Below are positions 2,446-18,399 of a stretch of 20,787 nt of DNA, in pieces. The stretch is from a virus (lineage: Duplodnaviria > Heunggongvirae > Uroviricota > Caudoviricetes), in the IMG/VR virus record IMGVR_UViG_2541047861_000013, one strand, 5' to 3'. The notes under the pieces were generated by a model, which did not search any database, had not been told where the DNA came from, and saw nothing but the letters and a program-made list of their open reading frames with translations. Numbering within the stretch: position 1 is the first letter of the stretch; every line of letters begins with the position of its first letter. The position numbers and the translations under genes were made by a program.

Positions 2446-2455
2446 CGATATCACC

Positions 2456-2893: not shown

Positions 2894-2944
2894 CTTCTTT
2901 CTCCATTAGTGGGTCTGTTACGACCCACAGGTTAATAACAGGCG

Positions 2945-3937: not shown

Positions 3938-3945
3938 TTCCTCTC

Positions 3946-4641
3946 TTATTTGCCATAGAGCACTTCGGCCGCACTACGCTGGCCTTCATTACCACCGGTG
4001 ACCATGCCATCTTCAGACATCGCCTTTCCGATTTTCACGAACGTTTTGACCAGATCAGGGTGATTACCCAGCCCGGTGGTGTTCAGATATTCTTTGAGTT
4101 CAGGTGTCCCGAACTGGTCAAGCGCACGCTGTGCGGCGCTAAGGTTAGAAATCAACTTGTCGCCACCGATTTCTTTGTCGGCTTTTACATCCACAGCCCA
4201 CTGCTCGGTTGTTTTCTGCCAGGCTTCTGCCTGGCGCTGCTGAACACCTGCCAGAATCTTCGGATAAGCATCAACCAGCTTTTGCGCTTGCTCGTTGGTC
4301 AGGTTTAGTTCTCGCGCCACCGGCTCGAATTCCTTCAACGCTTCTGTATCCAGCTCTACGCCTTCGGCAGCCTGAAACTCGTACTTTTCAGGCGCACCCT
4401 CTGGTTTATCGCCGTCCTTTTTTTCATCCTGCTTATCGTTTTCAGGCTTTTTGTCATCAGCAGGTTTATCGCCATCAGCAACAGGTTGTGGCTTATCACC
4501 TTCCTGTTGTGATGGATCACCAACTGGAGCAGGGTTATCACCTGCAGGCGCTGACGGTTCTGACGCAGCCGGAGCTGCTCCACCATCGACTGGTTGCTCA
4601 TTGCAAAGACGGCGATACAGCAAACGCTCAAATAAATTCAT
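3946..4641 (-). CDS. Scaffolding protein
   Basis: Acidic, low-complexity Ala/Pro/Asp/Lys-rich N-terminal half followed by a helical-looking C-terminal half, between portal and capsid; ATG at 4641 has AGGAG 5 nt upstream (track start 4647 is GTG). Confidence 0.55.
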   Translation of the reverse strand: MNLFERLLYRRLCNEQPVDGGAAPAASEPSAPAGDNPAPVGDPSQQEGDKPQPVADGDKPADDKKPENDKQDEKKDGDKPEGAPEKYEFQAAEGVELDTEALKEFEPVARELNLTNEQAQKLVDAYPKILAGVQQRQAEAWQKTTEQWAVDVKADKEIGGDKLISNLSAAQRALDQFGTPELKEYLNTTGLGNHPDLVKTFVKIGKAMSEDGMVTGGNEGQRSAAEVLYGK

Positions 4642-4643
4642 GA

Positions 4644-4940
4644 TCACTCCTGTTCACTGGCCTCTTTGGCCATCTTCAAATACTGTTCAGGGCAATGCGC
4701 CATAACGCGCTGAAACAGTTCCAGCGCCAGATTGCGTTGCCCCTCATTAAATGCCATTGCCATAGCGTCCATCGGTGAGATAGCGGAAAACACACGGCCT
4801 TTCTCCAGCACTGACCAGACAACGCGACGCCCCTGTTCACTGCTCATGACAAAGCGAATGTCATCAATTTCACGCTGTGCCATGTCACGTTGCTTACGGG
4901 CGTTTTCTTCTTTCAGTTGATCGTCTTCGTAATCTGTCAT
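4644..4940 (-). CDS. Hypothetical head-module protein (98 aa)
   Basis: ATG overlaps the portal stop (ATGA); charged, helical-looking sequence. Confidence 0.45.
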   Translation of the reverse strand: MTDYEDDQLKEENARKQRDMAQREIDDIRFVMSSEQGRRVVWSVLEKGRVFSAISPMDAMAMAFNEGQRNLALELFQRVMAHCPEQYLKMAKEASEQE

Positions 4941-6616
4941 TGTGATTGCCCACCCTGACCACTAACTGCATTCGCCATAGCTGACAAAACACTCGGATCC
5001 GAAGTTTTAGCTTCGCTTAGCGTCTTGGCACCCTGTGCCGCCACCATCCCCATCGCCATCATTTGTTGCTGCTGTTGTTGCTGTGCCCGTTGCTGGCGAG
5101 CCTGCTCAACCTGTTCCTGCGGAACAATGACGGTTGGAGACACTCCGGACATATCAGCGAATGCATCGATCGCCTGATCAACGTTGAGTTTGTCGAGAGC
5201 TTCTGGTTTCGCTTGCGCAAGTTGACCAATGAAGTTGACCGTAGACGCCAGACTGGACAGGCCGATAGACTTCTGCGCCTGAGCCATGACGGAAATGTAT
5301 TCGACCTTCAGGGGCATACCTTCCATCGCGTCAGGCGGTGGCGGCAGCATGTTTTTACGCACCATCATCGAGAAAGCGCGGTCAATGAGAGGATTAAGAC
5401 ATTCGTCGTTCAGACGCTCCAGAACCGGCCCCAACATCAGAAGTTTTTCTTCTTTCATTTCGATCACCGCTTCAACAGGCATCGAGCGGGTATTGATGTT
5501 CTGCAACATCATGAACAGATCGACAAAGTAGGCGCTGTTAATGATTTGACGGGTGTCCTGAATGTCTGCCACCAAATCTGCTGTACTGGGGTTAACCAGA
5601 TAAGCAGGCCTGAAACCATCCTGACCAGTAATCTGATCGATATACGTGATGTCGCCAGGAAGAAGGGAGGCACGCTGATTCTTGAGGGAAGTCGGAGCAA
5701 CCATCGGCGGATTGGTGGCTTTATCAATCAACTGCGACTTGCGCTTCTGGAGAAGCTGCAATGCCTTAACAGGTCCAAGCGCCAGCATACCCGGGCATGA
5801 TGATCCATAAACATCTTCGCCGTTAACTTCCCAGCGCGGAGCCATAATTGGAAACTCATCGAATCCGGACTCACGCAACAACTTGTCGTTATCGCCACCA
5901 ACCTCGTAATAAACCGATTTGAATGGCTTGTTCTTGCTATCCAGCTTCGATGTATCGCGGTCAATGTTCGGGTAAACCGAATGCATCACTTCAATCCACT
6001 TCTCGTAGGTGCCGCTTTCCCACATGCTTTTTACGGATTCGCTGACGTTATTTAGCCCGAACTCCTGAACAAGCTGACGAACAGTCATAGAGAACTTGCG
6101 AAAACAGGTGTCCACACTGCCACGAGGTGAGTTAGCCAGGTAGTAACTGCCTATCGGGAATGGCATTGTGCGAATGATGTCCTTGTCATCCTCCAGCACC
6201 GCCATTGCACCAGTGCTGTATGTGCCGAGGCTTCCGTATAACTGCGGAAGAGACTGGTAGAGATTCGACTTATTGAACATATCGTTCATGCGGTTCTGAA
6301 CTGCCTCAAGCCACAACTTAACAGGGCCATAGTCCATCATTTCAGGATCTGGCGTAGCCAGGCGAAACCACGGACGGGCGGGGCTTGTTATGCCTGACAT
6401 CATGCCGCTGGCAAGAGTGCGCGCCGCCATAGTCCCGGTCGAATCAATAATGCGTGTATTGCGTCGATCGTTACGGTTAACCTCAGAAGTCAGAAAGCGG
6501 GAACCACGCGGGTTGATGTAATCACTCAACTCGCGCCAGTGCGGCTCGAACGACTGACGCTCGCTTTCAAGTTGTGCGAACTGTTTGTTCAATCGCTCTT
6601 TAGTTGTTTCCGCCAT
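4937..6616 (-). CDS. Portal protein
   Basis: 559-aa ORF directly downstream of the terminase module with a Gln/Ala/Met-rich C-terminal tail; GGAG SD 8 nt upstream. Assignment by size and synteny. Confidence 0.7.
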   Translation of the reverse strand: MAETTKERLNKQFAQLESERQSFEPHWRELSDYINPRGSRFLTSEVNRNDRRNTRIIDSTGTMAARTLASGMMSGITSPARPWFRLATPDPEMMDYGPVKLWLEAVQNRMNDMFNKSNLYQSLPQLYGSLGTYSTGAMAVLEDDKDIIRTMPFPIGSYYLANSPRGSVDTCFRKFSMTVRQLVQEFGLNNVSESVKSMWESGTYEKWIEVMHSVYPNIDRDTSKLDSKNKPFKSVYYEVGGDNDKLLRESGFDEFPIMAPRWEVNGEDVYGSSCPGMLALGPVKALQLLQKRKSQLIDKATNPPMVAPTSLKNQRASLLPGDITYIDQITGQDGFRPAYLVNPSTADLVADIQDTRQIINSAYFVDLFMMLQNINTRSMPVEAVIEMKEEKLLMLGPVLERLNDECLNPLIDRAFSMMVRKNMLPPPPDAMEGMPLKVEYISVMAQAQKSIGLSSLASTVNFIGQLAQAKPEALDKLNVDQAIDAFADMSGVSPTVIVPQEQVEQARQQRAQQQQQQQMMAMGMVAAQGAKTLSEAKTSDPSVLSAMANAVSGQGGQSQ

Positions 6617-6630: not shown

Positions 6631-6837
6631 TTACTGACCAAGCAGCGTTTTACCGCTGGTATTAGCGGTTGATGTGTCGCCCTGAGAACCGGTAAGCAGC
6701 GTAGAACTACGACCAGCAGCAGCGCGACGGCGACGAGTTTCTTCGTCGCGGGCATCAACAACGGCGGCATCCTGCTCCTGTGGTGCTGCCTGAACTTCTG
6801 GTGTTGCAGGCACTGATGGTGAGCTACCCATGCACAT
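6631..6837 (-). CDS. Hypothetical small protein (68 aa, low complexity)
   Basis: Its translation-initiation region CGGAGTCATTGAT-ATG is a near-exact copy of the portal one (CGGAGTCATTGAA-ATG), which supports this frame over the overlapping 79-codon frame. Confidence 0.4.
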   Translation of the reverse strand: MCMGSSPSVPATPEVQAAPQEQDAAVVDARDEETRRRRAAAGRSSTLLTGSQGDTSTANTSGKTLLGQ

Positions 6838-6905
6838 ATCAATGACTCCGTACGCAATTAAATTATTACCAATTTAACCACATATGATTTATTTATCGTA
6901 GACAG

Positions 6906-6942
6906 TTGACATTTAACGCACGAATTATTACCTTTCAGGTAA
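6906..6942 (+). promoter_or_regulatory. Promoter-like TTGACA followed by a perfect TTACC-N5-GGTAA operator (6928-6942)
   Basis: TTGACA at 6906-6911; perfect 15-bp palindrome TTACCTTTCAGGTAA at 6928-6942. Which strand it serves (plus toward the tRNA, or minus toward the portal operon) is unresolved. Confidence 0.35.
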
Positions 6943-7264
6943 CCAAAGAATTCACTCCAGTTACTAATCTGACTGGCTTGTCGTTAAATTGAACAGGTGG
7001 GGTGAGCTTTTATTTTGAGCAGTACGGCGTATGGCACATGCGCCGATAGCGGTCTGGATACGTTTAAGGGGCACCCTCCCTTGCTCGGGCAAACGAACCA
7101 GGTAGCCGGAATGTGCAAGTCGAGCGGTTTTATTCCGCGCACGGGGATTCACCATCCCGGCGATTCGGTGTGACACCTCGGAAGAGACGAGGGTACAACG
7201 ATGAGAGCATTTATGGAGCCGCGACAAAGTGTGGCGCCTTAACAGGCTAAGTGCTCTCAGCGTT

Positions 7265-7341
7265 GTGGCATTAGCTCAGTTGGACAGAGCAACCGCCTTC
7301 TAAGCGGTTGGTCGCAGGTTCGAATCCTGCATGCCGCGCCA
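7265..7341 (+). tRNA. tRNA-Arg, anticodon UCU (argU-like), 3' CCA encoded
   Basis: Hand-folded cloverleaf: acceptor GTGGCAT/ATGCCGC (one G-U pair), D-stem GCTC/GAGC, anticodon stem ACCGC/GCGGT with loop CTTCTAA (anticodon TCT), T-stem GCAGG/CCTGC with TTCGAAT loop, discriminator G, CCA. Close to, but not identical with, my recollection of E. coli argU. Confidence 0.85.
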
Positions 7342-7384
7342 GAATCACGCCTAAGGACCGTGATGCCAGAAGTTCCAGGTGCTT

Positions 7385-7427
7385 GGCGGTGATGGTTTCC
7401 CTTGAAGGACTATCACCGCCCTTTTTA
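7385..7427 (+). terminator. Intrinsic terminator downstream of the tRNA
   Basis: GGCGGTGAT...ATCACCGCC stem followed by CTTTTTA. Confidence 0.5.
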
Positions 7428-7504
7428 CAGCAGGACGCCATTGCGATGACTTCATGCTGTAAACCCGTACAGCCACGGAAGGCATAACTCATTGCTTCCA
7501 GTTC

Positions 7505-7528
7505 GCCCGGTTCGCCGGGCATTTTTTT
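7505..7528 (+). terminator. Intrinsic terminator-like hairpin directly upstream of the moron ORF's ribosome-binding site
   Basis: GCCCGG-ttcg-CCGGGC followed by A-TTTTTTT, ending 11 nt before the ATG at 7540. Confidence 0.5.
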
Positions 7529-7539
7529 AAGGTGAGATC

Positions 7540-7962
7540 ATGAAAACAATTGATATGTTGGCTAAGTATCTAAATGAATGGCCATTAAAATATTCTCGTA
7601 TCGTTCAGGCTGAAGACTGCGTTTTTTATGGCGTTTTTGCTGGTAATGAAATGCATTACGAAGTAATTCAGAGTGAGGGACTGACCGGGTTAACTCTTAG
7701 CGAAGACCATGGTACTAGCGTTACGTTCCATGACTGGATAACAGCACAACGTTCTGAAATGGAAAAAGGCGATGTGTTTGATATTTCTCGCTCTGTTTGC
7801 GCTAAAGCAAAAAGTGATAATGATTACATGAGCGAACACTTATACAACATGAAGCTACAGTGCCTTGCCGAGGTGCTTGGTAAAAAAGCTATTGTCGATA
7901 AACAAGGCGCCATTAGCGAAGCAAAGGCAATAAATGCTGCATTTGATGAAATTATTTTCTAG
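7540..7962 (+). CDS. Hypothetical protein, 140 aa; AT-rich moron transcribed opposite to the late operon
   Basis: AAGGTG SD 5 nt before the ATG; a hand count of the first 120 nt gives roughly 35-40% GC, clearly below the flanking phage genes by eye; own downstream terminator; no transmembrane segment or recognisable catalytic motif. Confidence 0.6.
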   Translation: MKTIDMLAKYLNEWPLKYSRIVQAEDCVFYGVFAGNEMHYEVIQSEGLTGLTLSEDHGTSVTFHDWITAQRSEMEKGDVFDISRSVCAKAKSDNDYMSEHLYNMKLQCLAEVLGKKAIVDKQGAISEAKAINAAFDEIIF

Positions 7963-7965
7963 CTC

Positions 7966-7979
7966 TGTGACATGTCACA
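7966..7979. repeat. Perfect 14-bp palindrome TGTGACATGTCACA
   Basis: Read directly; sits between the moron stop (7962) and its terminator. A 13/14 copy lies at 10417-10430. Confidence 0.6.
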
Positions 7980-7982
7980 AAC

Positions 7983-8010
7983 AGCCAGCCTATGAGCTGG
8001 CTTTGTTTTA
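7983..8010 (+). terminator. Intrinsic terminator after the moron ORF
   Basis: AGCCAGC-ctatga-GCTGGCT followed by TTGTTTTA. Confidence 0.55.
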
Positions 8011-8052
8011 TCCTCACCAGAGGATATCAACGACATTATCCCCACCAGCGGA

Positions 8053-9528
8053 TTAAGCATAGGGATCGTAATCTGTGATGGCCTTGCCTTGCTGGTTCTG
8101 CTGACCGGGAATTCGCAGACGCTTCGACACAGGGAACGCAAACGTCAGCAGTAGCGCATCGCCTTTACCAGGAGAACGCCCAAGTCGCTCTTTGATATCT
8201 TCCTTCGGTTCGATAACGATTTTACCGTCCACTCGAACTTTGTACTCTGCTGCCGACAGGTCGTCCGCTGTTTCCTGGTCATCCAGCATGCCACCGAGCC
8301 TCAGCCATGTCTTGCATGAGTTGAACATCTCCCCACGCTTGTTGAGCATCTGCGGGTCAGTAGACGCGCCACCGAACGGAACAAGTTGCCATGTACGACC
8401 CCAGCCGTCACCGATTGACTTCAAACCGGTTCCGTAACCGAAGTCGATGAACACCGCGTCAGCCTGATACTGGTCTTCAAAGTCAGCGATACGCTTCGCC
8501 ATAATCAGATCGTCGGTAGTCTTGTTGCCAGTCCACAGCACCTTACTGTGTAGCCCCTGCCGCAGGTATATCACAGCGTCATCAACGCCGGAGTATGCCG
8601 GGTCAACGCCGATTATCACCGGAGCATGTGCAACCTGCGCAGCGGTTACCACCCGTTTCATTGCCTCGTCAGTAAGACCGGTAGGGATAAACTGCAATTC
8701 AGATGCATCAGGGAATATGCCACGCACACGGATTTTAACGAAGTCGCTGTCTTCCCCGTAGTCATCAACCCATTTCTGCAACTGCTGTTTGTTAGTGCCT
8801 TCCACCGTCCGGCTGTCAATCTGCGCAGTTTTCCAGCGGTGTTTATATTTGCGGAAACATTCGCGAAAACGCCCGGTGTTACGTGTAGGGTTTCCGAACG
8901 CCACCCAAATAATCTCAGTGTCTTCGTCCGTAAGCGCACCCTCGGCAACTTCCCACACCAGATCCGCAATGTTCGACGCTTCATCAAACACCACGATGAT
9001 GCGTTTGCGCTCGTTGTGTAGTCCGGCGAATGCCTCAGTGTTGTGCTCAGACCAGGGTATTGCGTCAGCCCGCCACCGCTTGTCGTGCCCAGGGTCATTG
9101 CTGTACATCGCGGTAGCGGTACAGGTAAACCAGTCTTTCGTGATAGCAAGGTTCGACCACTTGATAATTTCCGGCCAGGTCTTCGTTCGTAGCTGGTTGT
9201 CGGTGTTGGCGGTCACCACGACCTTACAATCCTCGCAAGTGGACATGCCCCAGTTGATGAGCATTGAGATGAATGCGGATTTACCAATACCGTGACCAGA
9301 AGCACGTGCCAGCATAAGCGGCTGATAACGCGTCTCTGGATTCTGCAGGTGATCACGTATCTCTCGGAACGCATCGGCCTGCCACTGACGTGGACCGGTA
9401 GCATGTGCCAGTTCAGTCCCCTCTTCCCCCCAAGGGAACGCATAGAGGGCATAGCCAAGCGGATCGTGAGTGAACCCTGCAATATCTTCGATTAACTGCT
9501 CTTCAGGAGATAACGCTGCATCTGTCAC
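8053..9528 (-). CDS. Terminase large subunit
   Basis: Walker A (ARASGHGIGKSAF) and Walker B-like IVVFDEA motifs; 491 aa; GTG start overlapping the small-subunit stop (GTGA). Confidence 0.85.
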   Translation of the reverse strand: MTDAALSPEEQLIEDIAGFTHDPLGYALYAFPWGEEGTELAHATGPRQWQADAFREIRDHLQNPETRYQPLMLARASGHGIGKSAFISMLINWGMSTCEDCKVVVTANTDNQLRTKTWPEIIKWSNLAITKDWFTCTATAMYSNDPGHDKRWRADAIPWSEHNTEAFAGLHNERKRIIVVFDEASNIADLVWEVAEGALTDEDTEIIWVAFGNPTRNTGRFRECFRKYKHRWKTAQIDSRTVEGTNKQQLQKWVDDYGEDSDFVKIRVRGIFPDASELQFIPTGLTDEAMKRVVTAAQVAHAPVIIGVDPAYSGVDDAVIYLRQGLHSKVLWTGNKTTDDLIMAKRIADFEDQYQADAVFIDFGYGTGLKSIGDGWGRTWQLVPFGGASTDPQMLNKRGEMFNSCKTWLRLGGMLDDQETADDLSAAEYKVRVDGKIVIEPKEDIKERLGRSPGKGDALLLTFAFPVSKRLRIPGQQNQQGKAITDYDPYA

Positions 9529-10118
9529 TGATTACCATCCTGACGTTCTTTGAGTCGCTTCCTGGCTGCCGCTATGCGATCAGCAATTGTCACATTCACA
9601 TTAACATCCAGTCGTTCTTTGAATGCGTTGACGTCGACGTGCTTACCAATCAGTTCGAGGTTCTTCACCTTGTCAGGCCATTTAATTTTTTTGAGGATTG
9701 TCTCTATCGAATCCTCGTTCATGTTCATGATGGTCGATGACAGATCAAAGCCGCTAAGCGTAGTGCGCCAGATTTTCGGCCACTCGCGGATTGGCTTAAG
9801 GCTCCCATCGTCGTTGAGGATATCAATCACGTCCATCTGGTCGATCTCCACCAGGCGCATGAGAACGTAATCAGCACTGACGCGCATTCGTTTGTTGCGC
9901 TCCTCCATCAACTCGGCAATCCGTTTCTGAATGCGTTCATCGCGCATCATGACACTGGCTTTAACTGCCGCTGTATTTGGGGAGAATCCTGCATTAATCG
10001 CAGCCTGAGTCTGGTTTTCAGGCGTTTTGATGTATGACTGGCAATAAGCCTCCTGCATTGCTGTTAGTGGCTTAAATTGCGTTGATTTGCGTTTATAGGC
10101 TTTAGGTTCAGCAGGCAT
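9525..10118 (-). CDS. Terminase small subunit (P27-like family)
   Basis: ...LTAMQEAYCQSYIKTPENQTQAAINAGFSPNTAAVKAS... matches the conserved small-terminase HTH region as I remember it. Start set at the ATG-ATG pair (10121/10118) preceded by GGTGG; the track's extended TTG start would read through the operator repeats. Confidence 0.75.
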   Translation of the reverse strand: MPAEPKAYKRKSTQFKPLTAMQEAYCQSYIKTPENQTQAAINAGFSPNTAAVKASVMMRDERIQKRIAELMEERNKRMRVSADYVLMRLVEIDQMDVIDILNDDGSLKPIREWPKIWRTTLSGFDLSSTIMNMNEDSIETILKKIKWPDKVKNLELIGKHVDVNAFKERLDVNVNVTIADRIAAARKRLKERQDGNQ

Positions 10119-10120
10119 CA

Positions 10121-10153
10121 TAACCACCGTGGTAATAGTTACCGTTGTGGTAA
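10121..10153 (-). promoter_or_regulatory. Tandem operator-like sites at the terminase small-subunit start
   Basis: TAACCACCGTGGTAA (10121-10135, one mismatch) and TTACCGTTGTGGTAA (10139-10153, perfect), 18 bp apart, just downstream of a minus-strand terminator. Confidence 0.45.
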
Positions 10154-10162
10154 TAGTAACAT

Positions 10163-10190
10163 GCAAAATAAAGCCGCCATAGTTGGCGGC
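10163..10190 (-). terminator. Intrinsic terminator separating the nin-like genes from the packaging operon
   Basis: GCCGCC-atagtt-GGCGGC followed on the minus strand by UUUAUUUUG. Confidence 0.45.
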
Positions 10191-10195
10191 AGTAT

Positions 10196-10408
10196 TCAAA
10201 GTCCATCAAATTCATCGTAAAAACTCTCGTCAAGATACCCTTCCCATTTACCGCGAATGAAAATTACATCCTCGCCGCAAGGGTGCTGACTGTCGATAAC
10301 TATATCCCTCCTGGCGCAACCATACTTATGCATGAGAAATTTAACCTCTTTCGGAAAATTTGCTGAGTTATCTCTCATATCTTCAAGGTCGTAGCGTATT
10401 TTTGGCAT
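10196..10408 (-). CDS. Hypothetical small protein (70 aa)
   Basis: ATG at 10408 (MPKIRYDLEDM...) preceded by GAAGGTG; the alternative GTG at 10429 lies inside the 12-bp palindrome. Confidence 0.4.
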   Translation of the reverse strand: MPKIRYDLEDMRDNSANFPKEVKFLMHKYGCARRDIVIDSQHPCGEDVIFIRGKWEGYLDESFYDEFDGL

Positions 10409-10417
10409 AACACCTTC

Positions 10418-10429
10418 GTGACATGTCAC
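10418..10429. repeat. 12-bp palindrome GTGACATGTCAC (second copy of the 7966-7979 core)
   Basis: Read directly; overlaps the stop codon of the 112-aa gene. Confidence 0.6.
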
Positions 10430-10764
10430 ACTATTAATTTCGTTTCATGCCAGCCTTTAGTCACCCAGCATTGTGAGTCACCATTACACGGACATGAATT
10501 AACTGGAACTCTCTCGCCGCACTTACCGCAACGTTTTCTACTGATCGATTTTATACGCCCGCGCACGCGTGCATCATCCTGGCGGATCAGTAACGCTATA
10601 TACTCACCAAATTCGTAAGGCGCACGCCCGGGGCGACGCGCGGCACAGTTACGCTCAAGCATTTCAATTTCCTGAGCATCAAGCACAATCTCCAGCTTAC
10701 GTACACCGGATGCAGCTTGTCTGGCTCTCTGAGCGGCTTTGCGCTCTGCTGCTGATTTAGCCAT
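10426..10764 (-). CDS. Hypothetical protein with C-terminal Cys-cluster (zinc-ribbon-like), 112 aa
   Basis: Ala/Arg-rich N-terminus; C-terminal CGKCG...CPC...C; ATG at 10764 with AAAGGTGA SD 6 nt upstream. Confidence 0.45.
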   Translation of the reverse strand: MAKSAAERKAAQRARQAASGVRKLEIVLDAQEIEMLERNCAARRPGRAPYEFGEYIALLIRQDDARVRGRIKSISRKRCGKCGERVPVNSCPCNGDSQCWVTKGWHETKLIV

Positions 10765-11038
10765 CAATATTCACCTTTATCGCGTAAACCTTTACCGGTT
10801 TATCGCCGAAGTGCGGATGTGTGATTGTCTTGATTTCATATCCGTCATACGGGACGTCAATTCTGCGGCTGGAATCGTCGCGCTTCGGATATCCCTTTGT
10901 GATAATCAGGCGGTCATGCTTACGGTTAACGAGGCGCTTTTTCCAGTAGTCATTAACAAGGCGATACTCTTCCGTTTTCTCTCCGCGAATCATGGCATCG
11001 AAGTATTCACCTTTAACGGCAAGTTGCAAGTTAGCCAC
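10757..11038 (-). CDS. Hypothetical protein, possibly ASCH/DUF3850-like (93 aa, GTG start)
   Basis: GTG at 11038 is preceded by a perfect AGGAGG SD at 6-nt spacing; KGEYFDAMIRGEKTEEYR resembles ASCH-type domains from memory. Confidence 0.4.
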   Translation of the reverse strand: MANLQLAVKGEYFDAMIRGEKTEEYRLVNDYWKKRLVNRKHDRLIITKGYPKRDDSSRRIDVPYDGYEIKTITHPHFGDKPVKVYAIKVNIDG

Positions 11039-11723
11039 GGTTAACCTCCTGCTTCGGTGCTGCTGGCATTTCACGCCAGTGCGTAACTGAGTGCGGATCC
11101 GGATATTCGGTGCCATCATCCCAGCGATTACCATTCCACATTGCAGACCACATCTCACCGTCTTCATACATGACCATTACCGGAATTAACTTATCCGGCA
11201 TTCGCTCACTACAGCTTATCCAACCATCCGGAGTTACCGGATAGTTGCCAGCCTGAACAGTAGGCATATCAGGACCTTTGCGAATCGCCCTGGCAAGATC
11301 GATTGGGTCGTCGTACAACCAGTCACCTGTTTGCGGATGATTGGCTTCTGCCAATTGTGCAGCCCACTCCAGGCCGTCTTTGTGTCCTTGCAGATAGTCC
11401 AGCGGTAACTCATCACTATTACTTACAGGTTCGGCTTCCAGCTCAACGCGCAGCTTCCCTACCGTTAGCGCAATATCCTCGTTCTCCTGGTCGCGGGATT
11501 TGATGTATTGCTGGTTTCTTTCCCGTTCATCCAGCAGCGCCAGCACGGTTTCTGGTCCGGTCAGAAATTTGAAGGCGTTGAGCGCATCAATATCCACACC
11601 GTAATCCTTAAGTTCCTGTTCACTTAACAAATCATCATCAACTGGCAACATTAACAGGCGTTCCATTGCTGGAATTGCACGTTCCGCCACCTCACGCAGT
11701 GCCTGGTAATTAATTTCGCTCAC
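11031..11723 (-). CDS. Ead/Ea22-like N-terminus fused to a DUF551-like C-terminus (230 aa)
   Basis: Starts MSEINYQALREVAERA (typical Ea22-like opening); C-terminal WISCSERMP...THWREMP resembles DUF551; GTG start with AAGGAGG SD. Confidence 0.5.
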   Translation of the reverse strand: MSEINYQALREVAERAIPAMERLLMLPVDDDLLSEQELKDYGVDIDALNAFKFLTGPETVLALLDERERNQQYIKSRDQENEDIALTVGKLRVELEAEPVSNSDELPLDYLQGHKDGLEWAAQLAEANHPQTGDWLYDDPIDLARAIRKGPDMPTVQAGNYPVTPDGWISCSERMPDKLIPVMVMYEDGEMWSAMWNGNRWDDGTEYPDPHSVTHWREMPAAPKQEVNRG

Positions 11724-12238
11724 TGATTGCCTCCTTTGCGAAGCTGGGCAGCAAAGTCAACTAACCACTCAGTCATTTCAACCTTCCCTACCAGGTCTGA
11801 ACCAGGGTGCATACAGCAATCACTCTGCGCCGCTTTGAAATCCTTATACTCATATTCTTGGGCCACCAGATTTTTTGCAGCTTCTATAGCAGCATCCACG
11901 CCCTGTGCCCGCAGTTCCGACAGGAAAGCATCGGTGGCTGGCATATTTCCTGTTGCCTTCATGGCCTCCAAAATAACCAGAACGCCATCTCTCCCAACCT
12001 CCTCGCAAATAACCTCGGTGTTGTCGCCAACAACATCGCAGAATGCCTGAACTGCTTTACGAGCAAGTGAATTCTCCGCCGCCAGCGCATTAGCACGCAC
12101 CAGTTGCACTTCCAGTTGCGTTGCCAAATCGCTGATCAGCTTTGCCACACTGCGCATATCAACGGCACCACATTCTGCTTTCAGTTCCGAAGCCATCTCA
12201 TGCCCGGAGGAAACTAACCCTTTGATATTACTTTCCAT
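11720..12238 (-). CDS. Hypothetical protein (172 aa)
   Basis: ORF with GAGG SD; acidic, helical-looking; no motif recognised. Confidence 0.45.
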   Translation of the reverse strand: MESNIKGLVSSGHEMASELKAECGAVDMRSVAKLISDLATQLEVQLVRANALAAENSLARKAVQAFCDVVGDNTEVICEEVGRDGVLVILEAMKATGNMPATDAFLSELRAQGVDAAIEAAKNLVAQEYEYKDFKAAQSDCCMHPGSDLVGKVEMTEWLVDFAAQLRKGGNQ

Positions 12239-12299
12239 CTTTACCCTCGCTTATCCACATAACTTATTGATTACATTGATAACTAAAAAGATCGTCGAT

Positions 12300-12644
12300 T
12301 CAGAACTCTTCGATGTTCCAGCCACCACCTGCTTTCTTTGGCTTAACCGTTACCCCGATGATTCGGAACGGATACTGATCTGCGGCGACTTTGGTTTTCA
12401 CCCTGGCGTCGTCGGTCCAGAAACCTTTCACTTCGTGCAGTTCCATCTCGCCGGTGGCGAGCATCACAGCGAAATCTGGCGTATAGAACGTGTTGTCAGC
12501 TAACCGCAGCTTGATACCCTCGAATCGATACCAGGCGATTTCCCCTGCACGTTTACGCAGCTCAAGGTGCTGGCAATACGCAGATTCTGTTTTGTTCATC
12601 TGGCCTGTTTTGAGTCGACCAAGAGCCTGTATCTGTTTTCTCAT
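12300..12644 (-). CDS. DUF1064-like putative PD-(D/E)XK nuclease (114 aa)
   Basis: ...YTPDFAV...ELHEVKG... gives a D...E.K signature typical of small resolvase-like nucleases in phage nin regions. Confidence 0.55.
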   Translation of the reverse strand: MRKQIQALGRLKTGQMNKTESAYCQHLELRKRAGEIAWYRFEGIKLRLADNTFYTPDFAVMLATGEMELHEVKGFWTDDARVKTKVAADQYPFRIIGVTVKPKKAGGGWNIEEF

Positions 12645-12647
12645 GAT

Positions 12648-12724
12648 TTACCCCTGAGGTAATTAAAAACCACATAAGACACGAAATCAATAGAGTTTAG
12701 AATATTTTGTTACCCAGCAGGTAA
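12648..12724 (-). promoter_or_regulatory. Promoter flanked by two perfect operator sites, driving the nin-like genes
   Basis: Minus-strand -35 TTGATT (plus 12685-12690), 17-bp spacer, -10 TTTAAT (12662-12667). TTACCCAGCAGGTAA (12710-12724) lies upstream of the -35; TTACCCCTGAGGTAA (12648-12662) lies between the -10 and the start codon. Confidence 0.5.
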
Positions 12725-12761
12725 TTATCAAGACGTAAAAAAATGCGCTATCGCGCTGGTA

Positions 12762-13544
12762 TTACTTGATAAATCCTGCCGCCTTTCCCCGCCTGTATTC
12801 CTCCATCAGCCACTGCGCCGGTGTTATTCCCCCTAGGGTGGCGGCGTTAGGCATGCACCCGAAACTTCGCCCTGGTGGATGGTAAACGTCTCTCCCTGTG
12901 TCCGGAGGCGTACTCATTGGTTCTGGCTTTGCCTGTATGCTGATCACCGGATCGGGTATCTGCTGTCCGGAAGCCACCTTTTTCGCCCAATCATCGAGCA
13001 GCCTGCGCGCGTGTTTCTCAACCTCAATCTCGCTAAGCTGGCGCTGATACATTGCACGGCGGGTATCACATACGACCCAGTACATAACCGGATGTCGCCA
13101 CGGGAATCTTTCGGGACCACCAGGATATAAACTTTTTTCCTTGCTGTACCGGTGAAACTCCGCCATCACATCGTCAATGGTGACGCCAAGAACCATCTTG
13201 CTGTCTTTGCACCACTTGATGAATTGCCCAGGCGACGGCCAGAACGGAGATTCACTGGCGCGGGCGTGGCGCATACCAGCGTTAACCTGTTCCATTGTTG
13301 TGATCCCATTCTCCAGAAACGCAAGCATCCATTGTTTTCGAAATTCGTTTAGCTTTCCTTGCTCGCTGATAGCAGCGATGCTGCCTGGAAATGCAGCCTG
13401 TAACTGGACAAACATTTCGTTGAAAATTCTTGCAACCTGCTCCTTCTTTGCCCTTTCATCGTCAGCAGAAGCAACCGCCGTCGAGTGGTCATGCCCACCA
13501 CGAAAGCGATCGTACTCATTAAGAAGTTCTGGAGTTGATTTCAT
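12762..13544 (-). CDS. Lambda P-like replication protein (DnaB helicase loader)
   Basis: WMLAFLENGITTMEQVNAGMRHARASESPFWPSPGQFIKWC is near-identical to the lambda P segment as I recall it (WVLAFRENGITTMEQVNAGMRVARRQNRPFLPSPGQFVAWC); start set at the ATG (MKSTPELL) with GAGGTG SD. Confidence 0.75.
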   Translation of the reverse strand: MKSTPELLNEYDRFRGGHDHSTAVASADDERAKKEQVARIFNEMFVQLQAAFPGSIAAISEQGKLNEFRKQWMLAFLENGITTMEQVNAGMRHARASESPFWPSPGQFIKWCKDSKMVLGVTIDDVMAEFHRYSKEKSLYPGGPERFPWRHPVMYWVVCDTRRAMYQRQLSEIEVEKHARRLLDDWAKKVASGQQIPDPVISIQAKPEPMSTPPDTGRDVYHPPGRSFGCMPNAATLGGITPAQWLMEEYRRGKAAGFIK

Positions 13545-14352
13545 CCCACACCTCATCTATCCAGTCAGTGTTATGCCAGTCAAGGCTCTTTCTGACTTCA
13601 CCTGATTTCTGTCTACAGAACTGGATGCGCCTTGCCAGCTTCTGCTCCCACTGTGCCTGATGGTATGCCTTACCCTCAGCCATCCAGTAAATTCTGAACT
13701 CTGCAAGTTCCTGTGCCGTTGGCAGACTGTCCAGGTAGATTCCCTGCAATGAGCTTTTCCGAAGAAAGTCATCTGATGGCTGCCATTGTTCATGCATGAC
13801 AAATTTACCTAATTGCCCTGGCCCACCAGGAGGAACAAAGTTATTCATCACGGCGTTGTTTGCGCCGGGGTCATGAGGAACAGAATCCCCGGTTTTTGTC
13901 CTGCTCTCCCTCTCTTGGTTAAATGACTGGTTATATGACTGGTTCTGGATCCCGTTTTTGGGATCATTCAACATCCCGTTTTTGGGATCATTCAACATCC
14001 CGTTTTTGGGTATATTCCCGTTTTCGGTAACATTACCGTTTTCGGGTTCATTGCCCCCCTCCCGGTTGCCTTTAATGTTCCCGTTTTTGGTTATATTAAG
14101 AGAGAAAACCCGCACTCTTTTTGTCGCTCCCTTTCTCTCTCCGGTATCTGAAATAAGCCCCATTTTCATGAGCGATATAAGCCCGGCCTGCACGGTTTTT
14201 TTATTCAGGCAAGTGTCTTTAACGAGGCGTTCTATGCTGGGGTAGCAGAGGTTATATTCATCGGCTCTGTCAGCCATCGAGAGCAGTATGAGCTTTAATG
14301 ATGAGCTACCTGGATCTGTCTCCCAGGCCCAATCTGTTGCATGTCTGCTCAT
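13519..14352 (-). CDS. Lambda O-like replication initiator with origin iterons inside the gene
   Basis: Sits upstream of and overlapping the P-like gene; central Asn/Gly-rich repeats (NGMLNDPKNGMLNDPKNG) are encoded by the DNA iterons. Confidence 0.55.
   Translation of the reverse strand: MSRHATDWAWETDPGSSSLKLILLSMADRADEYNLCYPSIERLVKDTCLNKKTVQAGLISLMKMGLISDTGERKGATKRVRVFSLNITKNGNIKGNREGGNEPENGNVTENGNIPKNGMLNDPKNGMLNDPKNGIQNQSYNQSFNQERESRTKTGDSVPHDPGANNAVMNNFVPPGGPGQLGKFVMHEQWQPSDDFLRKSSLQGIYLDSLPTAQELAEFRIYWMAEGKAYHQAQWEQKLARRIQFCRQKSGEVRKSLDWHNTDWIDEVWDEINSRTS
13951..14091. repeat. Origin iterons: CCCGTTTTTGGG cores
   Basis: Three perfect copies at 24-bp spacing (13951, 13975, 13999) plus degenerate copies at 14017, 14035 and 14080, all within the O-like ORF. 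Confidence 0.6.
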
Positions 14353-14367
14353 GATTAATCTCCGCTA

Positions 14368-14568
14368 TCAGCTTGAGTGTTGTGGGGAGGAATTAATCAT
14401 GATCTGCTTAATCTCTGCCCTGATGCGACGGTTTGATTCCATGGTGCACTCAACACAGTGTCCGTTGTAAACCCAGCGTTCACTGTCATGTCCGTGCTTA
14501 CATGGTTTTCCGGTGTAGTAGCGTTTAAGTCCGCGCTTTGCGGCATCAATACGTGTAATGATTTCCAT
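14368..14568 (-). CDS. Small Cys/His-cluster protein (66 aa) in the cII-equivalent position
   Basis: MEIITRI...KPCKHGHDSERWVYNGHCVEC...; ATG at 14568 with AGGG SD; the longer track ORF (to 14631) has no SD. Confidence 0.4.
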   Translation of the reverse strand: MEIITRIDAAKRGLKRYYTGKPCKHGHDSERWVYNGHCVECTMESNRRIRAEIKQIMINSSPQHSS

Positions 14569-14602
14569 GGTAAGCCCTGTTATTAGTATTGGGATTACGG
14601 TT

Positions 14603-14663
14603 ATTTTGTGCTGACACAAAAAAAAGATCAACCAGATTTGGTTTTTTATTACCTTTGAGGTAC
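14603..14663 (-). promoter_or_regulatory. Promoter with upstream operator-like site between cro and the replication genes
   Basis: Minus-strand -35 TTGATC (plus 14626-14631), 17-bp spacer, -10 CAAAAT (14603-14608); TTACCTTTGAGGTAC (14649-14663, one mismatch) 18 bp upstream of the -35. Confidence 0.35.
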
Positions 14664-14674
14664 GAATAGATATG

Positions 14675-14696
14675 AAAAGACCGCCGGGTGGCGGTC
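14675..14696 (-). terminator. Intrinsic terminator downstream of the Cro-like gene
   Basis: GACCGCC-acc c-GGCGGTC followed on the minus strand by UUUUCAU. Confidence 0.5.
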
Positions 14697-14718
14697 TACA
14701 GAGGGTTGTGGCTGGATA

Positions 14719-14949
14719 TCATGAGTAGAAGAAGTATGCCAGTTCTGCTTTTGAGCGCAGCCATTGTCTTGTTTTACAGGCTTTAAAAAGCCCATTCATC
14801 AATACTTTACCTGGCATTTTTCGCTTACCTGTTAAGTGAGTCTGGATATAGTGACTCGTCGTTCCGGCTTCCTGTGCGAAGGCTTCACGCTCATCCGGAG
14901 TAAGTGCAAGCCAGTGCTTTTTGAAATCGAAATGTCCGTTATCGCTCAT
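14719..14949 (-). CDS. Cro-like HTH regulator (76 aa)
   Basis: Divergent from the repressor gene across the operator region; small protein with a putative HTH; weak SD. Confidence 0.55.
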   Translation of the reverse strand: MSDNGHFDFKKHWLALTPDEREAFAQEAGTTSHYIQTHLTGKRKMPGKVLMNGLFKACKTRQWLRSKAELAYFFYS

Positions 14950-14985
14950 AGCTATTGCCTGATATTTATTTCAGATAATAAATAT

Positions 14986-15048
14986 TCACCCATAAGGTAA
15001 CAAAAATCAAGGATAGTTACCTATGAGGTGCATTTACCTGTTGGGTAA
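14986..15048. promoter_or_regulatory. Right-operator-like region with three TTACC-N5-GGTAA-type sites between the Cro-like and repressor genes
   Basis: TCACCCATAAGGTAA (14986-15000), TTACCTATGAGGTGC (15017-15031), TTACCTGTTGGGTAA (15034-15048, perfect); the last two are 17 bp apart. Confidence 0.6.
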
Positions 15049-15103
15049 TATTGCTTTAAATTGAATCATCTACTGATTCATATATGAGGCGATTTTCCAG
15101 AAA

Positions 15104-15688
15104 ATGAAAAGTATCCAGGACGTCCGCAGGCAAAATCTCAACGACTTGATCGACCGTGAATTCAATGGTGTTCAGACGCGGATGGCAGAAAAACTTGGAA
15201 CTCAGGCAAATCTGGTAAACCGCTGGGCTCTTGGCAAGAAGGTTATCGGCGACCAGGTTGCGCGAAAAATTGAAGCTGCCGCCAATAAACCCCGTAACTG
15301 GCTTGATATCGATCGCTCGCTTTCTCAGGAAGGTTTTCAGCCTGTCGGCCCAAGCGACATTGGTCAGCTGGCGGCTCACAACCTGGAACGCTGGATGAGC
15401 GAAAGCCGCGACCTTTCAACACAGGGAAAACTTCACCGCGCATCCGGCGTCGCCCAGGTGACAATCAGCCGCCTGTTAAACAATGAGGTCAGCGTTTCCA
15501 TTTCCACCCTGGAGAATGTTGCATCCGCATTCGGGCGTCACGGCTATGAATTACTGATTCACCCGCACGACCCTGCGACTATCAACTATGACCGCTCGCG
15601 CTACGCATTGTTACCCGAAACAGAGAAGGCAAAGATCGAAAGTTACATTGAATTTGTCATCAGCCAGAACGAAAAAAACAAACAATAA
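15104..15688 (+). CDS. Phage repressor, CI-equivalent, with two HTH (XRE-type) regions and no LexA-like peptidase domain
   Basis: N-terminal HTH (GVQTRMAEKLGTQANLVNRWALGKK) and a second HTH-like segment (ASGVAQVTISRLLNNEVSVSISTLENVASAFG); no Ser/Lys autoprotease signature; divergent from the Cro-like gene. Confidence 0.65.
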   Translation: MKSIQDVRRQNLNDLIDREFNGVQTRMAEKLGTQANLVNRWALGKKVIGDQVARKIEAAANKPRNWLDIDRSLSQEGFQPVGPSDIGQLAAHNLERWMSESRDLSTQGKLHRASGVAQVTISRLLNNEVSVSISTLENVASAFGRHGYELLIHPHDPATINYDRSRYALLPETEKAKIESYIEFVISQNEKNKQ

Positions 15689-15708
15689 AATCATATTTTT
15701 CAGTAAGT

Positions 15709-15733
15709 AAGCCGCCTCATGGCGGCTTTTTTA
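15709..15733 (+). terminator. Intrinsic terminator after the repressor gene
   Basis: GCCGCC-tcat-GGCGGC followed by TTTTTTA. Confidence 0.6.
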
Positions 15734-15745
15734 TTGCCAGCAAGA

Positions 15746-15822
15746 TTACCTTATGGGTAATTTTTTTAACTCATATCTATTGACATCAAACCAGATACGC
15801 ATAATCATTACCTCAACGGTAA
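15746..15822 (+). promoter_or_regulatory. Left-promoter-like region: TTGACA promoter flanked by two perfect operator sites
   Basis: TTACCTTATGGGTAA (15746-15760), -35 TTGACA (15780-15785), TTACCTCAACGGTAA (15808-15822); the -10 is ambiguous (CATAAT at 14-bp spacing or TAATCA at 16 bp). Confidence 0.55.
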
Positions 15823-15841
15823 CAGACCGAGGTAACAAATT

Positions 15842-15994
15842 ATGCAGTGGAAAATCATCAACGGTTGGTACTGCGTTACTGCATGCGGATTCATGAGCTG
15901 GAAGTTCCGCACCTTACAGGAAGGCATTAAGTGGGCTTTCGTCAGCAAAGAAGCTCGCGATGTGGCCAACGATAACGAGATATGGGAGGGCTGA
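15842..15994 (+). CDS. Hypothetical 50-aa protein, first ORF of the early-left operon
   Basis: ATG at 15842 with GAGGT 9 nt upstream; MQWKIINGWYCVTACGFMSWKF...; below the track's size cutoff. Confidence 0.3.
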   Translation: MQWKIINGWYCVTACGFMSWKFRTLQEGIKWAFVSKEARDVANDNEIWEG

Positions 15995-15996
15995 TA

Positions 15997-16296
15997 ATGA
16001 ACGTTAATCAGCAGAAAAATCTTCAAAAAATCATGCAGGCATTCGACAAGGACTACCACCTGTCAGAACAGCTATATGACCGACAAGTTGAACTGATTGA
16101 GAGCATCCGACTTCATCAACTGTCATCAACTTTCGACGTTGTAACAGGCAAAGGCGTTCGTCAGGAAGTACTGGAGGCTGCTAAAGACAGCCCTGAGTTC
16201 GAAGAACTGATGGATGCCTATCGGCGAGAGGCAATGGCAATTATCGCCCGCTGGGATCTGGCGGATCAGCTTGATGGACAGAAGGACGCGGCATGA
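15997..16296 (+). CDS. Hypothetical protein (99 aa) immediately upstream of the exonuclease gene
   Basis: ATG at 15997 with GGGAGGG SD 6 nt upstream; stop overlaps the exonuclease start (ATGA). Confidence 0.45.
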   Translation: MNVNQQKNLQKIMQAFDKDYHLSEQLYDRQVELIESIRLHQLSSTFDVVTGKGVRQEVLEAAKDSPEFEELMDAYRREAMAIIARWDLADQLDGQKDAA

Positions 16297-17114
16297 AACC
16301 GGGAATTTATTTCGGCATCAGCAACGAAGACTACCACGCAGGTGACGGCGTGAGTAAGTCGCAACTGGACATGGTTGCCAAGAATCCGGCGCTTCTTAAA
16401 TGGGTTCAGGCAGCACCAGAAGACGAAGAGAAAAAGTCTGCATTGGATATGGGAACCGCATTGCACTGCCTGCTTCTGGAACCTGGAGAATTCGACAAAC
16501 GCTTCATCGTGTCACCGAAATTCGATCGTCGGACAAAACAAGGTAAAGCTGACGAAGAAGCATTTCTTCGTGATGTGGCGGATATGGGTATTACGGTACT
16601 TGATGTCGAGCAGTGGCGAAAACTTGAGCTCATGCGTGATAGCGCAATGGCTCATCCGGCGGCACGCTGGATGTTGGAAGCACCTGGTTACTGCGAAGCA
16701 TCAATGTACTGGAACGATGAAGAGACGGGTGAGTTGTGCCGAATTCGTCCAGACAAATGGCTGAACGAGCACAACGTGATCGTCGACGTGAAAAAGGTTG
16801 CAGATATGGACCGTTTTGCACGCCACATCGAGGAATTCCGCTACCACGTGCAGGACGCAATGTACCGCGAAGGCGCAACGAGGGTTACTGGTCAACCGCA
16901 TGGTTTTTTCTTTCTTGCCGTGAGCGAAAGCATTGATTGTGGTCGGTATCCGGTACGCGTGTTCGAGTTGGATGCGCCGGATGTCGATGCCGGGCACGCT
17001 CTGTTCCGCCGGGATCTGAATACCTATCACGAATGCCGCATAAATGATGAATGGGGCGGCGTGGAAATTATTAAACGCCCTGACTGGGCACGTAAACAGG
17101 ATATGTATGTATGA
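16293..17114 (+). CDS. Recombination exonuclease, PD-(D/E)XK family (RecE C-terminal-domain-like)
   Basis: ...CRIRPDKW...IVDVKKV... gives a PD...D.K signature; translationally coupled to the downstream annealing-protein gene (ATGA). Confidence 0.65.
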   Translation: MKPGIYFGISNEDYHAGDGVSKSQLDMVAKNPALLKWVQAAPEDEEKKSALDMGTALHCLLLEPGEFDKRFIVSPKFDRRTKQGKADEEAFLRDVADMGITVLDVEQWRKLELMRDSAMAHPAARWMLEAPGYCEASMYWNDEETGELCRIRPDKWLNEHNVIVDVKKVADMDRFARHIEEFRYHVQDAMYREGATRVTGQPHGFFFLAVSESIDCGRYPVRVFELDAPDVDAGHALFRRDLNTYHECRINDEWGGVEIIKRPDWARKQDMYV

Positions 17115-17992
17115 GCAATGATATCGCAATCACATCACAACCAGGCGCAACTGTAGGCACTGCTGCGGCAATCTTCAGCCCCGAGGGCATGAATCAACTG
17201 GTGCGTTTCGCGGAGTTGATGTCACAAAGCAAAGCGACTGTACCGAAACATCTTGAAGGCAAACCTGCCGATTGCCTGGCGGTGACTATGCAGGCGGCAC
17301 AGTGGGGAATGAACCCTTTCGCCGTGGCGCAGAAAACGCATGTGGTAAACGGAACGTTAGGCTACGAAGCACAGTTGGTAAACGCGGTCGTATCCTCTTC
17401 CAGCCTGCTGGCGACACGCCTGAATTATCGCTGGAGCGGTGACTGGTCGAATGTTAACGGCAAAACAGATAAATCACCGAATCTGACGGTAACTGTGTCA
17501 GCAGTTCTTAAAGGTGAAACAGAACCCCGTGAGCTTACCATCAGTATGGCGCAAGCCGGAGTGCGTAACTCTCCATTGTGGGAACAGGATCCGCGCCAGC
17601 AGCTTGCCTATCTTTGCACGAAACGATGGGCTCGCCTGCACGCTCCTGATGTGCTTCTCGGTGTTTACACCCCTGACGAATTACAGGAAACGGCACCGCG
17701 CGTTGAGCGAGACATTACTCCGCAAACAACTACTGCTGCGGGAATGAACAGTCTGATCAACGCTAAACCAGTGAAAAAGCCTGATGAGCAAACTCGTAAA
17801 GCGGATAGCCGTGATCCAGAAGAAATGCTGATGGCCTTTACCAGCGCAGCGATGAATTACAGCACTGTCTCCGAACTGGATAAGGCTTACAAATACATTG
17901 CACAAAAACTTTCAGATGATGACGAACTGCTGGCAAAAGCCACCGACGTTTACAGCGTTCGTCGGGAAGAATTAAACGAAACATCTATGTAA
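17111..17992 (+). CDS. Single-strand annealing protein, Bet/RecT family
   Basis: C-terminal ...ETAPRVERDITPQ... matches the lambda Bet segment (...QPERDITPVNDE...) from memory; paired with the exonuclease. Confidence 0.65.
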   Translation: MSNDIAITSQPGATVGTAAAIFSPEGMNQLVRFAELMSQSKATVPKHLEGKPADCLAVTMQAAQWGMNPFAVAQKTHVVNGTLGYEAQLVNAVVSSSSLLATRLNYRWSGDWSNVNGKTDKSPNLTVTVSAVLKGETEPRELTISMAQAGVRNSPLWEQDPRQQLAYLCTKRWARLHAPDVLLGVYTPDELQETAPRVERDITPQTTTAAGMNSLINAKPVKKPDEQTRKADSRDPEEMLMAFTSAAMNYSTVSELDKAYKYIAQKLSDDDELLAKATDVYSVRREELNETSM

Positions 17993-18041
17993 CCACCACC
18001 GCGGCGCCACGCGCGCCGCACTGCAACCAAGAGAGGTATTT

Positions 18042-18290: not shown

Positions 18291-18399
18291 GTGCGCTGCT
18301 AAGGCACTGGATCAAATGGTCAGGATGGTACTTATTCCTGGCCTCTGTTTCAGCATGGCTTTATCTGCTGGCATTAATTTTCAGAGAGGGTTGGATTAA

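Follow-up and report, generated by a model that had tools for sequence, protein, structure and literature searches.

A short palindrome, TTACC-N5-GGTAA, marks six control regions in a 20,787-nt stretch of temperate E. coli phage DNA (IMG/VR record IMGVR_UViG_2541047861_000013; "the window" below means this whole stretch). We consider it probable, at roughly two chances in three, that the phage's own immunity repressor, a homologue of the Rep protein of phage SPC32H, uses these sites as its operators. The regions are the right-operator-like (OR-like) cluster, a leftward promoter resembling PL of lambda (PL-like), the junction following cro, the promoter following the replication genes (post-replication promoter), the start of the terminase small-subunit gene terS, and the divergent region between gp3 and a tRNA gene. 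By megablast the window belongs to the Uetakevirus group of ε15/phiV10-like temperate podophages and is 97–98% identical to phages PAS61, phiv142-3, ZX5 and TL-2011b. Its late, replication and nin-like genes are on the minus strand, and the repressor and the recombination, methylase and int-proximal genes are on the plus strand. An earlier note on this DNA had claimed that the immunity operator recurs at control regions of the replication, nin-like and packaging genes, and this is sound: the distal sites and the sites flanking repressor and cro share one consensus. The motif is real, is well conserved and has the look of a functional element; the regulatory model first built on it is broadly correct but errs on several points.

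Allowing at most one mismatch, TTACCNNNNNGGTAA has 10 matches in the window against 0.30 expected (maximum of 2 in 100 dinucleotide shuffles). Outside the immunity region, the matches at 6928, 10139, 12648 and 12710 are perfect and those at 10121 and 14649 carry one mismatch; the pattern search returned exactly the six coordinates that had been given before. The others, at 14986, 15034, 15746 and 15808, belong to the immunity region. In an unbiased census of every palindrome built from a 5-mer, a spacer of 0–9 nt and the reverse complement, TTACC-N5-GGTAA ranked first in the window with seven perfect copies, and any other had at most two. None of the 10 sites contains a coding base; given the window's non-coding share of 9.5%, the probability of such placement is ~3e-11 if the sites are independent. 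The shuffles, the census and the all-intergenic placement together rule out a chance origin of the motif. Pooled over relatives, the consensus reads aTTACC-wwWww-GGTAAt, with only A or T at the central base.

Two genes of the immunity region encode candidate readers of this motif:

15104–15688, plus strand: repressor (Rep/CI-like, 194 aa), SPC32H Rep homologue
14719–14949, minus strand: Cro-like gene (76 aa) that opens the rightward lytic unit; its product matches phrog_35 'transcriptional repressor' (E=6e-13)

A phmmer search against the PDB matched the repressor to 5D50_A over residues 1–190 (E=4e-42), and BLASTP gave 42% identity to SPC32H Rep with the helix NLVNRW kept. Within this putative recognition helix, N36, R40 and W41 do not vary among 17 aligned homologues, the most distant of which is 42% identical. 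Pfam and NCBIfam returned helix-turn-helix (HTH)-type domains alone for the repressor, and found no S24 autocleavage peptidase domain. According to one published account (PMC9638917), SPC32H Rep binds palindromic sites as a tetramer, with pairs of DNA-binding domains contributed by different dimers; it is not cleaved but dismantled by a small, tetrameric antirepressor. A second paper (PMC9986798) describes its C-terminal tetramerisation domain as having a fold proposed to mediate DNA looping, and states that its mechanism of repression 'has not been extensively characterized'. The only functional data to emerge concern ZX5, whose repressor is 99.5% identical to that of the window: when it was overexpressed, quantitative PCR showed a loss of more than 99.9% of the mRNA for holin and endolysin (PMC9782041). 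The antirepressor gene, ant, lies outside the window; in relatives a CTGT-N8-ACAG (LexA) box is conserved upstream of the ant homologue.

The sites surround the repressor gene in the arrangement of OR and of a leftward operator (OL):

14986–15048, between cro and rep: OR-like cluster, with operators 14986–15000 (one mismatch), 15018–15032 (two mismatches) and 15034–15048 (perfect)
15709–15728, plus strand: intrinsic terminator before the OL cassette
15746–15822, downstream of rep: OL-like cassette, with operators 15746–15760 (distal) and 15808–15822 (proximal), centres 62 bp apart
15780–15785 and 15803–15808, plus strand: PL-like promoter in the OL cassette, TTGACA and AATCAT separated by 17 nt

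In the cro promoter, operator 14986–15000 separates TTGATT/TTGTTA from a TATTAT-type -10, and the PL-like cassette leads into a ribosome-binding site and an ATG at 15842. A different perfect palindrome, GAATCA-N5-TGATTC (15062–15078), stands in the repressor leader, just before the start codon; phiV10 conserves it, Tyrion has it only in part, and the sequence differs in ε15.

Both the motif and its placement are kept across relatives. TTACC-N5-GGTAA also ranks first among the palindromes of phiV10, PAS61, Tyrion (Enterobacter), BUCT711 (Klebsiella) and the Salmonella phages ε15 and SPC32H, as it does in Serratia and E. coli prophages whose repressors are 54–59% identical to the window's. Spacing was counted over nine related genomes and loci. 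The post-replication pair is 62 bp apart in eight of the nine and 18 bp apart in the Serratia prophage, and the OL pair is 62 bp apart in seven, with 63 bp, or 75–76 bp and an extra site, elsewhere. Six have the 18-bp pair at terS (the window, PAS61, phiV10, Tyrion, ε15 and E. coli prophage L012), and SPC32H retains the second terS site with two mismatches. The single site before gp3/portal, the OR cluster and the site after cro also keep their positions, and relatives carry extra sites upstream of ant/tail-fibre, lysis and int, beyond the window's span. In the two prophages the sites are at:

263, 3339, 7285/7303, 9939 and 10922/10997: Serratia prophage L010
491, 3680/3698, 7368/7430, 9882/9930 and 10647/10709: E. 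coli prophage L012

Within the locus alignments the arms are invariant, the 5-nt spacers vary freely and the flanks drift, which is the pattern expected of a protein-binding constraint. We also observed one constant operator specificity across members from Escherichia, Salmonella, Klebsiella, Enterobacter and Serratia, even though repressor identity falls to 42%. Immunity specificities of temperate phages normally diversify, and a constant specificity is thus unusual.

The alignments bear on whether another reader of the palindrome should be preferred, namely the Cro-like protein or a host factor, or whether the palindrome is kept mainly as a junction for module recombination. The Cro-like protein has weak HTH similarity to Rep, of the same type, and Cro proteins usually share the operators of their repressor; module edges of relatives (10216, 12365 and 14531) also lie near the cassettes described below. 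Yet the recognition helix of the Cro-like protein is unlike that of Rep, the sites surround rep in OR/OL fashion, and invariant arms within drifting spacers and flanks point to protein binding rather than junction homology. To our knowledge, no E. coli regulator has a TTACC-N5-GGTAA consensus, which counts against a host factor. We regard this set of explanations as very unlikely, and return to Rep as the preferred reader of the sites.

Leading away from cro on the minus strand, three loci carry distal operators:

14678–14697, minus strand: intrinsic terminator after cro, 8-bp stem with six GC pairs, then TTTTCATATCT
14649–14663: single post-cro operator (GTACC...GGTAA on the sense strand), 14 nt past the cro terminator and 17 nt before the -35
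14631–14626 and 14608–14603, minus strand: candidate promoter of the replication unit, TTGATC, 17 nt, CAAAAT; gene start 14568; fully conserved
12737–12756, minus strand: GCGC-GATA-GCGC hairpin then T7, after the P-like gene; conserved, and a terminator feature (35038–35057) in the phiV10 record
12710–12724 (distal) and 12648–12662 (proximal): post-replication operators, 62 bp apart
12690–12685 and 12667–12662, minus strand: post-replication promoter, TTGATT, 17 nt, TTTAAT; DUF1064 ATG at 12644
10173–10190, minus strand: strong intrinsic terminator ending the early-right operon, GCCGCCAACTATGGCGGC then TTTATTTTGC; kept in 5/5 aligned genomes
10139–10153 (perfect) and 10121–10135 (one mismatch): tandem terS operators, centres 18 bp apart, ending 3 nt before the ATG at 10118
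10166–10161 and 10143–10138, minus strand: weak terS promoter candidate, TTGCAT, 17 nt, GGTAAC, read by eye

Judged from the aligned leaders, the post-replication and PL-like cassettes are clearly of the same build, with -35 and -10 blocks conserved between the paired sites. That the sites at 12648–12662 and 12710–12724 bracket a promoter after the P-like gene had been claimed before, and the conserved -35 and -10 blocks bear it out. The proximal operator, 12648–12662, overlaps the -10, the +1 and the Shine-Dalgarno sequence. The hairpin at 12737–12756 was not listed by the terminator scan because its stem is shorter than five pairs. An alternative promoter here, a minus-strand TTGATA-16-CAAAAT around the distal operator, was rejected, as its -35 is not conserved.

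At terS, the gene start is fixed by alignment at a conserved ATGCCTGCTGAACC. The proposal of a tandem operator pair at this start, just past a terminator, holds (operators within 10121–10153, terminator at 10173–10190). Relative to the promoter candidate, operator 1 lies in the spacer and -10, and operator 2 lies over the +1 and the Shine-Dalgarno sequence.

The post-cro operator is built differently. One of its arms is degenerate in every phage aligned, and the GGTAAT arm together with the promoter block GGTTGATCTTTTTT...AAAAT is kept in six phages. The proximal partner site is missing in the window, and ε15 has a half-site there. The promoter, TTGATC-17-CAAAAT, was read by eye; its score of 8/12 is under the consensus-scan threshold. 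Here the earlier note had placed a site at a promoter after the cro terminator: the operator does follow that terminator and is near a promoter, but it lies upstream of the -35 and leaves the core promoter uncovered.

The fourth distal locus is the divergent region before gp3:

6928–6942: single perfect operator between gp3/portal (minus strand) and tRNA-Arg/ORF140 (plus strand); arms invariant in six phages
6906–6911 and 6929–6934, plus strand: promoter candidate, TTGACA, 17 nt, TACCTT inside the operator; faces tRNA-Arg and the open reading frame (ORF) at 7540–7962
6862–6889, minus strand: best gp3/portal late-promoter candidate, CATATGTGGTT at 6886–6876 and a -10-like AATAAT at 6867–6862, with no conserved -35

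This operator had been described as lying by a TTGACA upstream of the portal operon. The site is real and near that TTGACA, which is conserved (GTCAA in the alignment) at a fixed distance from the operator in 6/6 phages; it faces tRNA-Arg on the plus strand, and the portal operon is on the minus strand, so TTGACA 6906 was rejected as the portal promoter on grounds of strand. The gp3 leader block holding CATATGTGGTT and AATAAT is ultra-conserved, and the operator is ~80 bp upstream of the likely gp3 late start. An Rfam scan at the gathering threshold, aimed at this leader, matched the tRNA alone. The layout of terminator, operator, promoter and gene that had been proposed for each locus is thus seen at three of the four distal loci (post-cro, post-P and terS), and also at PL, and not at the portal locus.

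These arrangements suggest how the repressor might act. In a lysogen, one repressor species would occupy all sites. One operator at each of PL, the post-replication promoter and terS would cover the -10, the +1 and the ribosome-binding site, and its partner, at a distance of six helical turns or 18 bp, would allow cooperative binding through the second DNA-binding pair of the same tetramer. Upstream intrinsic terminators would insulate the units, and each unit would therefore be silenced separately. The post-cro and gp3 operators would more likely act by looping or as a roadblock, and the likelier role of operator 6928 is to repress the plus-strand tRNA promoter. After inactivation of Rep by the antirepressor, early units would fire from sigma-70 promoters, and late units would probably also need a phage-encoded positive factor.

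The same positions can be read another way, with Rep at the distal sites blocking read-through, or with those sites assisting in looping or titration, akin to the stoperators of mycobacteriophages, and not serving as promoter operators. Consistent with this, an operator starts 14–20 nt past a terminator hairpin in four places (14678 to 14663, 12737 to 12724, 10173 to 10153 and 15728 to 15746), and the 14649 and 6928 sites fall outside sense-strand core promoters. However, the sites are symmetric and none is intragenic, one site at each of PL, the post-replication promoter and terS lies over the -10, +1 and ribosome-binding site, the classical position for occlusion, and conserved -35 and -10 blocks stand between the paired sites. 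We consider it unlikely that the distal sites are of this kind, and promoter operators remain the preferred account of them.

A stronger competitor comes from the late leaders and from two putative regulators:

10426–10767, minus strand: putative transcription regulator (ε15 gp49-like); phrog_536 'transcriptional regulator', E=7e-55
18400–18699, in the left operon: PerC/ANR-like activator
6876–6889 and 14630–14643 in the window; 3305–3318, 20918–20931, 24736–24749 and 33132–33145 in phiV10: CATATRTGGTT element

According to this competitor, the main control of late transcription is positive, exerted by an activator or by an antiterminator that escaped recognition, and the distal Rep sites are a secondary lock; the candidates are the phrog_536 protein and the PerC-like protein, with CATATRTGGTT as the candidate DNA target. 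This element is common to the gp3, tail-fibre and lysis leaders of relatives, where it stands 7–10 nt before good -10s (AATAAT, TAGAAT and TATAAT); these leaders have no conserved -35, and their Rep operators are ~70–80 bp upstream of the putative late starts. A palindromic form, AACCA-N4-TGGTT, is enriched in phiV10 (9 with at most one mismatch against 1.3 expected). Further in favour, the early genes are cut off from terS by a terminator that is both strong and conserved, and the phrog_536 gene is the last conserved early gene before terS. C80, C83, C92, C94, C100 and H107 of the phrog_536 protein are invariant in 38 homologues and its N-terminus is basic and helical, which suggests a zinc-binding DNA-binding protein. 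On the other side, this protein had no match in Pfam, NCBIfam or the PDB, and its two AlphaFold models are of low confidence (predicted local distance difference test, pLDDT, 48 and 60); the second motif shows no significant enrichment in either the window or ε15, and the terS leader lacks it. We judge mainly positive control to be a serious contender that falls somewhat short of an even chance, and it is compatible with direct repression by Rep rather than exclusive of it. The CATATRTGGTT element also overlaps the -35 of the post-cro promoter, and it may be what a late activator, or else the Cro-like protein, recognises.

No N- or Q-like protein was found by PHROGs on 23 window ORFs at 6631–19648 or by Pfam/NCBIfam on subsets of them, with the structural genes at 220–6616, terL and the integrase lying outside the scan; the stated absence of a recognisable N- or Q-like antiterminator is borne out within this span. 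A novel, unrecognised antiterminator is possible despite this negative from the family scans.

Several points weigh against direct repression of every unit by Rep. The ZX5 result could equally reflect a cascade stopped at its first step, and does not separate direct from indirect control. The operators at 14649 and 6928 lie clear of any sense-strand core promoter. Promoters were assigned by eye, from consensus and conservation only, and the terS promoter is weak and was not recovered by the consensus scan. A literature search that did not extend to the primary papers on ε15 and SPC32H yielded no binding data for the distal sites. No relative with another operator specificity was found among the 17 homologues (at least 42% identity, with flanked Serratia and E. 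coli prophages included), all of which keep both helix and half-site. Finally, late expression probably needs a positive factor besides the loss of repression, with Rep as a parallel lock, because the late leaders lack a conserved -35 and share CATATRTGGTT, the phrog_536 protein is conserved and a PerC/ANR-like activator is encoded. The view of the lytic programme as simply a set of independently repressed units is therefore overstated, and loss of repression on its own would probably not drive it.

Repressor operators dispersed in this way have been marked before. The RefSeq record of ε15 (NC_004775.2) has seven predicted 'protein_bind: repressor, lysogeny' features, all perfect 17-mers of the form ATTACC-N5-GGTAAT:

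12–27: terS
2931–2947: gp3/portal
32479, 32554 and 32616: OL side
35906–35922: after the replication gene
a further site before the tail fibre gene

The motif is the same as in the window and the positions are orthologous (terS, gp3, post-replication and OL), although the two repressors are only 42% identical. Because the ε15 record marks these orthologous sites, the dispersed-operator design is already known, as a prediction, in the type phage of the genus. Since only perfect 17-mers are listed there, the OR sites, each pair's imperfect partner and the site upstream of lysis are missing from the record; a motif search recovers them. SPC32H has the same motif at the same loci, and its Rep is homologous over the full length, including the DNA-binding helix and the C-terminal region for tetramerisation and antirepressor (Ant) binding. 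The available publications on SPC32H describe inactivation of the repressor and not the operator set; the window itself is without ant.

Comparable designs occur in unrelated phages. In phiC31, a single repressor acts on palindromes, the conserved inverted repeats (CIRs), at many separate lytic promoters, and sites for the CB repressor of N15/phiKO2 lie at immunity, replication and antirepressor loci; for both phiC31 and N15, the proteins, hosts and motifs are unrelated to those of the window. The closest analogues in function, the stoperators of cluster A mycobacteriophages, are asymmetric and orientation-dependent, are often inside transcribed regions and block elongation, and the repressors and stoperators of this cluster diversified together. 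In contrast, the window's sites are palindromic and 10/10 intergenic, mostly overlap or bracket promoters, and have kept one specificity across the genus. What the two share is one immunity repressor with many genome-wide sites beyond the immunity region, as with L5 gp71 (PMC6550527). Relative to lambda, the window has a lambdoid gene order in which rep and cro diverge, OR comprises three sites, the leftward recombination operon is PL-like, and P-like and nin-like genes are present. It differs in having no N or Q homologue among the tested ORFs, in the terminator and operator-promoter cassettes that subdivide its rightward genes, and in a repressor that is non-cleavable.

The remaining genes of this part of the window are:

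14368–14568, minus strand: small ORF, start 14568, left of the Cro-like gene
13519–14352, minus strand: DnaT-like gene
12762–13556, minus strand: lambda-P-like gene, stop at 12762
between the P-like and phrog_536 genes, minus strand: DUF1064 (ATG 12644), Eae and Ea22/DUF551 genes
9525–10118, minus strand: terS, ATG at 10118; terL is next
7540–7962, plus strand: ORF140, in a plus-strand insert between terL and gp3/portal
7265–7341, plus strand: tRNA-Arg(UCU), an Rfam match, in the same insert
beyond the insert, minus strand: gp3 (ATG 6837), then the portal gene

The minus-strand ORF at 7271–7522 (phiV10p04, phrog_4647, in relatives) overlaps tRNA-Arg(UCU) by ~70 nt on the opposite strand and may be no real gene. 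Megablast matches end at ~10216, ~12365, ~14068 and ~14531, and these edges of mosaic modules are close to the terminator-operator-promoter cassettes, so the conserved cassettes may double as recombination junctions. Another conserved palindrome, GTGACATGTCAC, stands at operon 3' ends, at 7968–7977 (after terL) and 10419–10428 (over the phrog_536 stop codon); in relatives it also follows the last structural gene (e.g. at 19494 in phiV10), usually beside a terminator. In all relatives a conserved near-operator, TTACC-N5-GGTAT, forms part of an extended dyad (GGTATTACC...GGTATAC) that lies near attP, upstream of the integrase gene. This near-operator may link Rep to the control of int or attP. 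Its positions, outside the window, are:

26870–26884: L002 (phiV10)
26882–26896: relative L003
28568–28582: relative L008
238–252: relative L009

Together, these observations can be assembled into a broader picture that we put forward only tentatively, as rather doubtful in its entirety. The phage would be a lambdoid-looking podophage without antitermination, in which a single repressor, tetrameric and non-cleavable, holds all lytic units directly locked, the late ones included, through pairs of sites at a fixed spacing of 62 bp or 18 bp. About 14 sites would have to change together, so that specificity would be fixed genus-wide while the repressor drifted to 42% identity, and a separate late activator would read CATATRTGGTT.

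The idea is not new, in that the ε15 sites are annotated and comparable multi-site repressor systems are known. If Rep occupies all of its sites, the prophage would, unlike lambda, be silenced by parallel repression of insulated units and not by blocking the top of a cascade, and induction would amount to taking the repressor tetramer apart. This would explain why specificity is unchanged across phages of Escherichia, Salmonella, Klebsiella, Enterobacter and Serratia, and it predicts cross-immunity among them, which bears on phiV10-type reporter phages and on the prophages of pathogenic E. coli.

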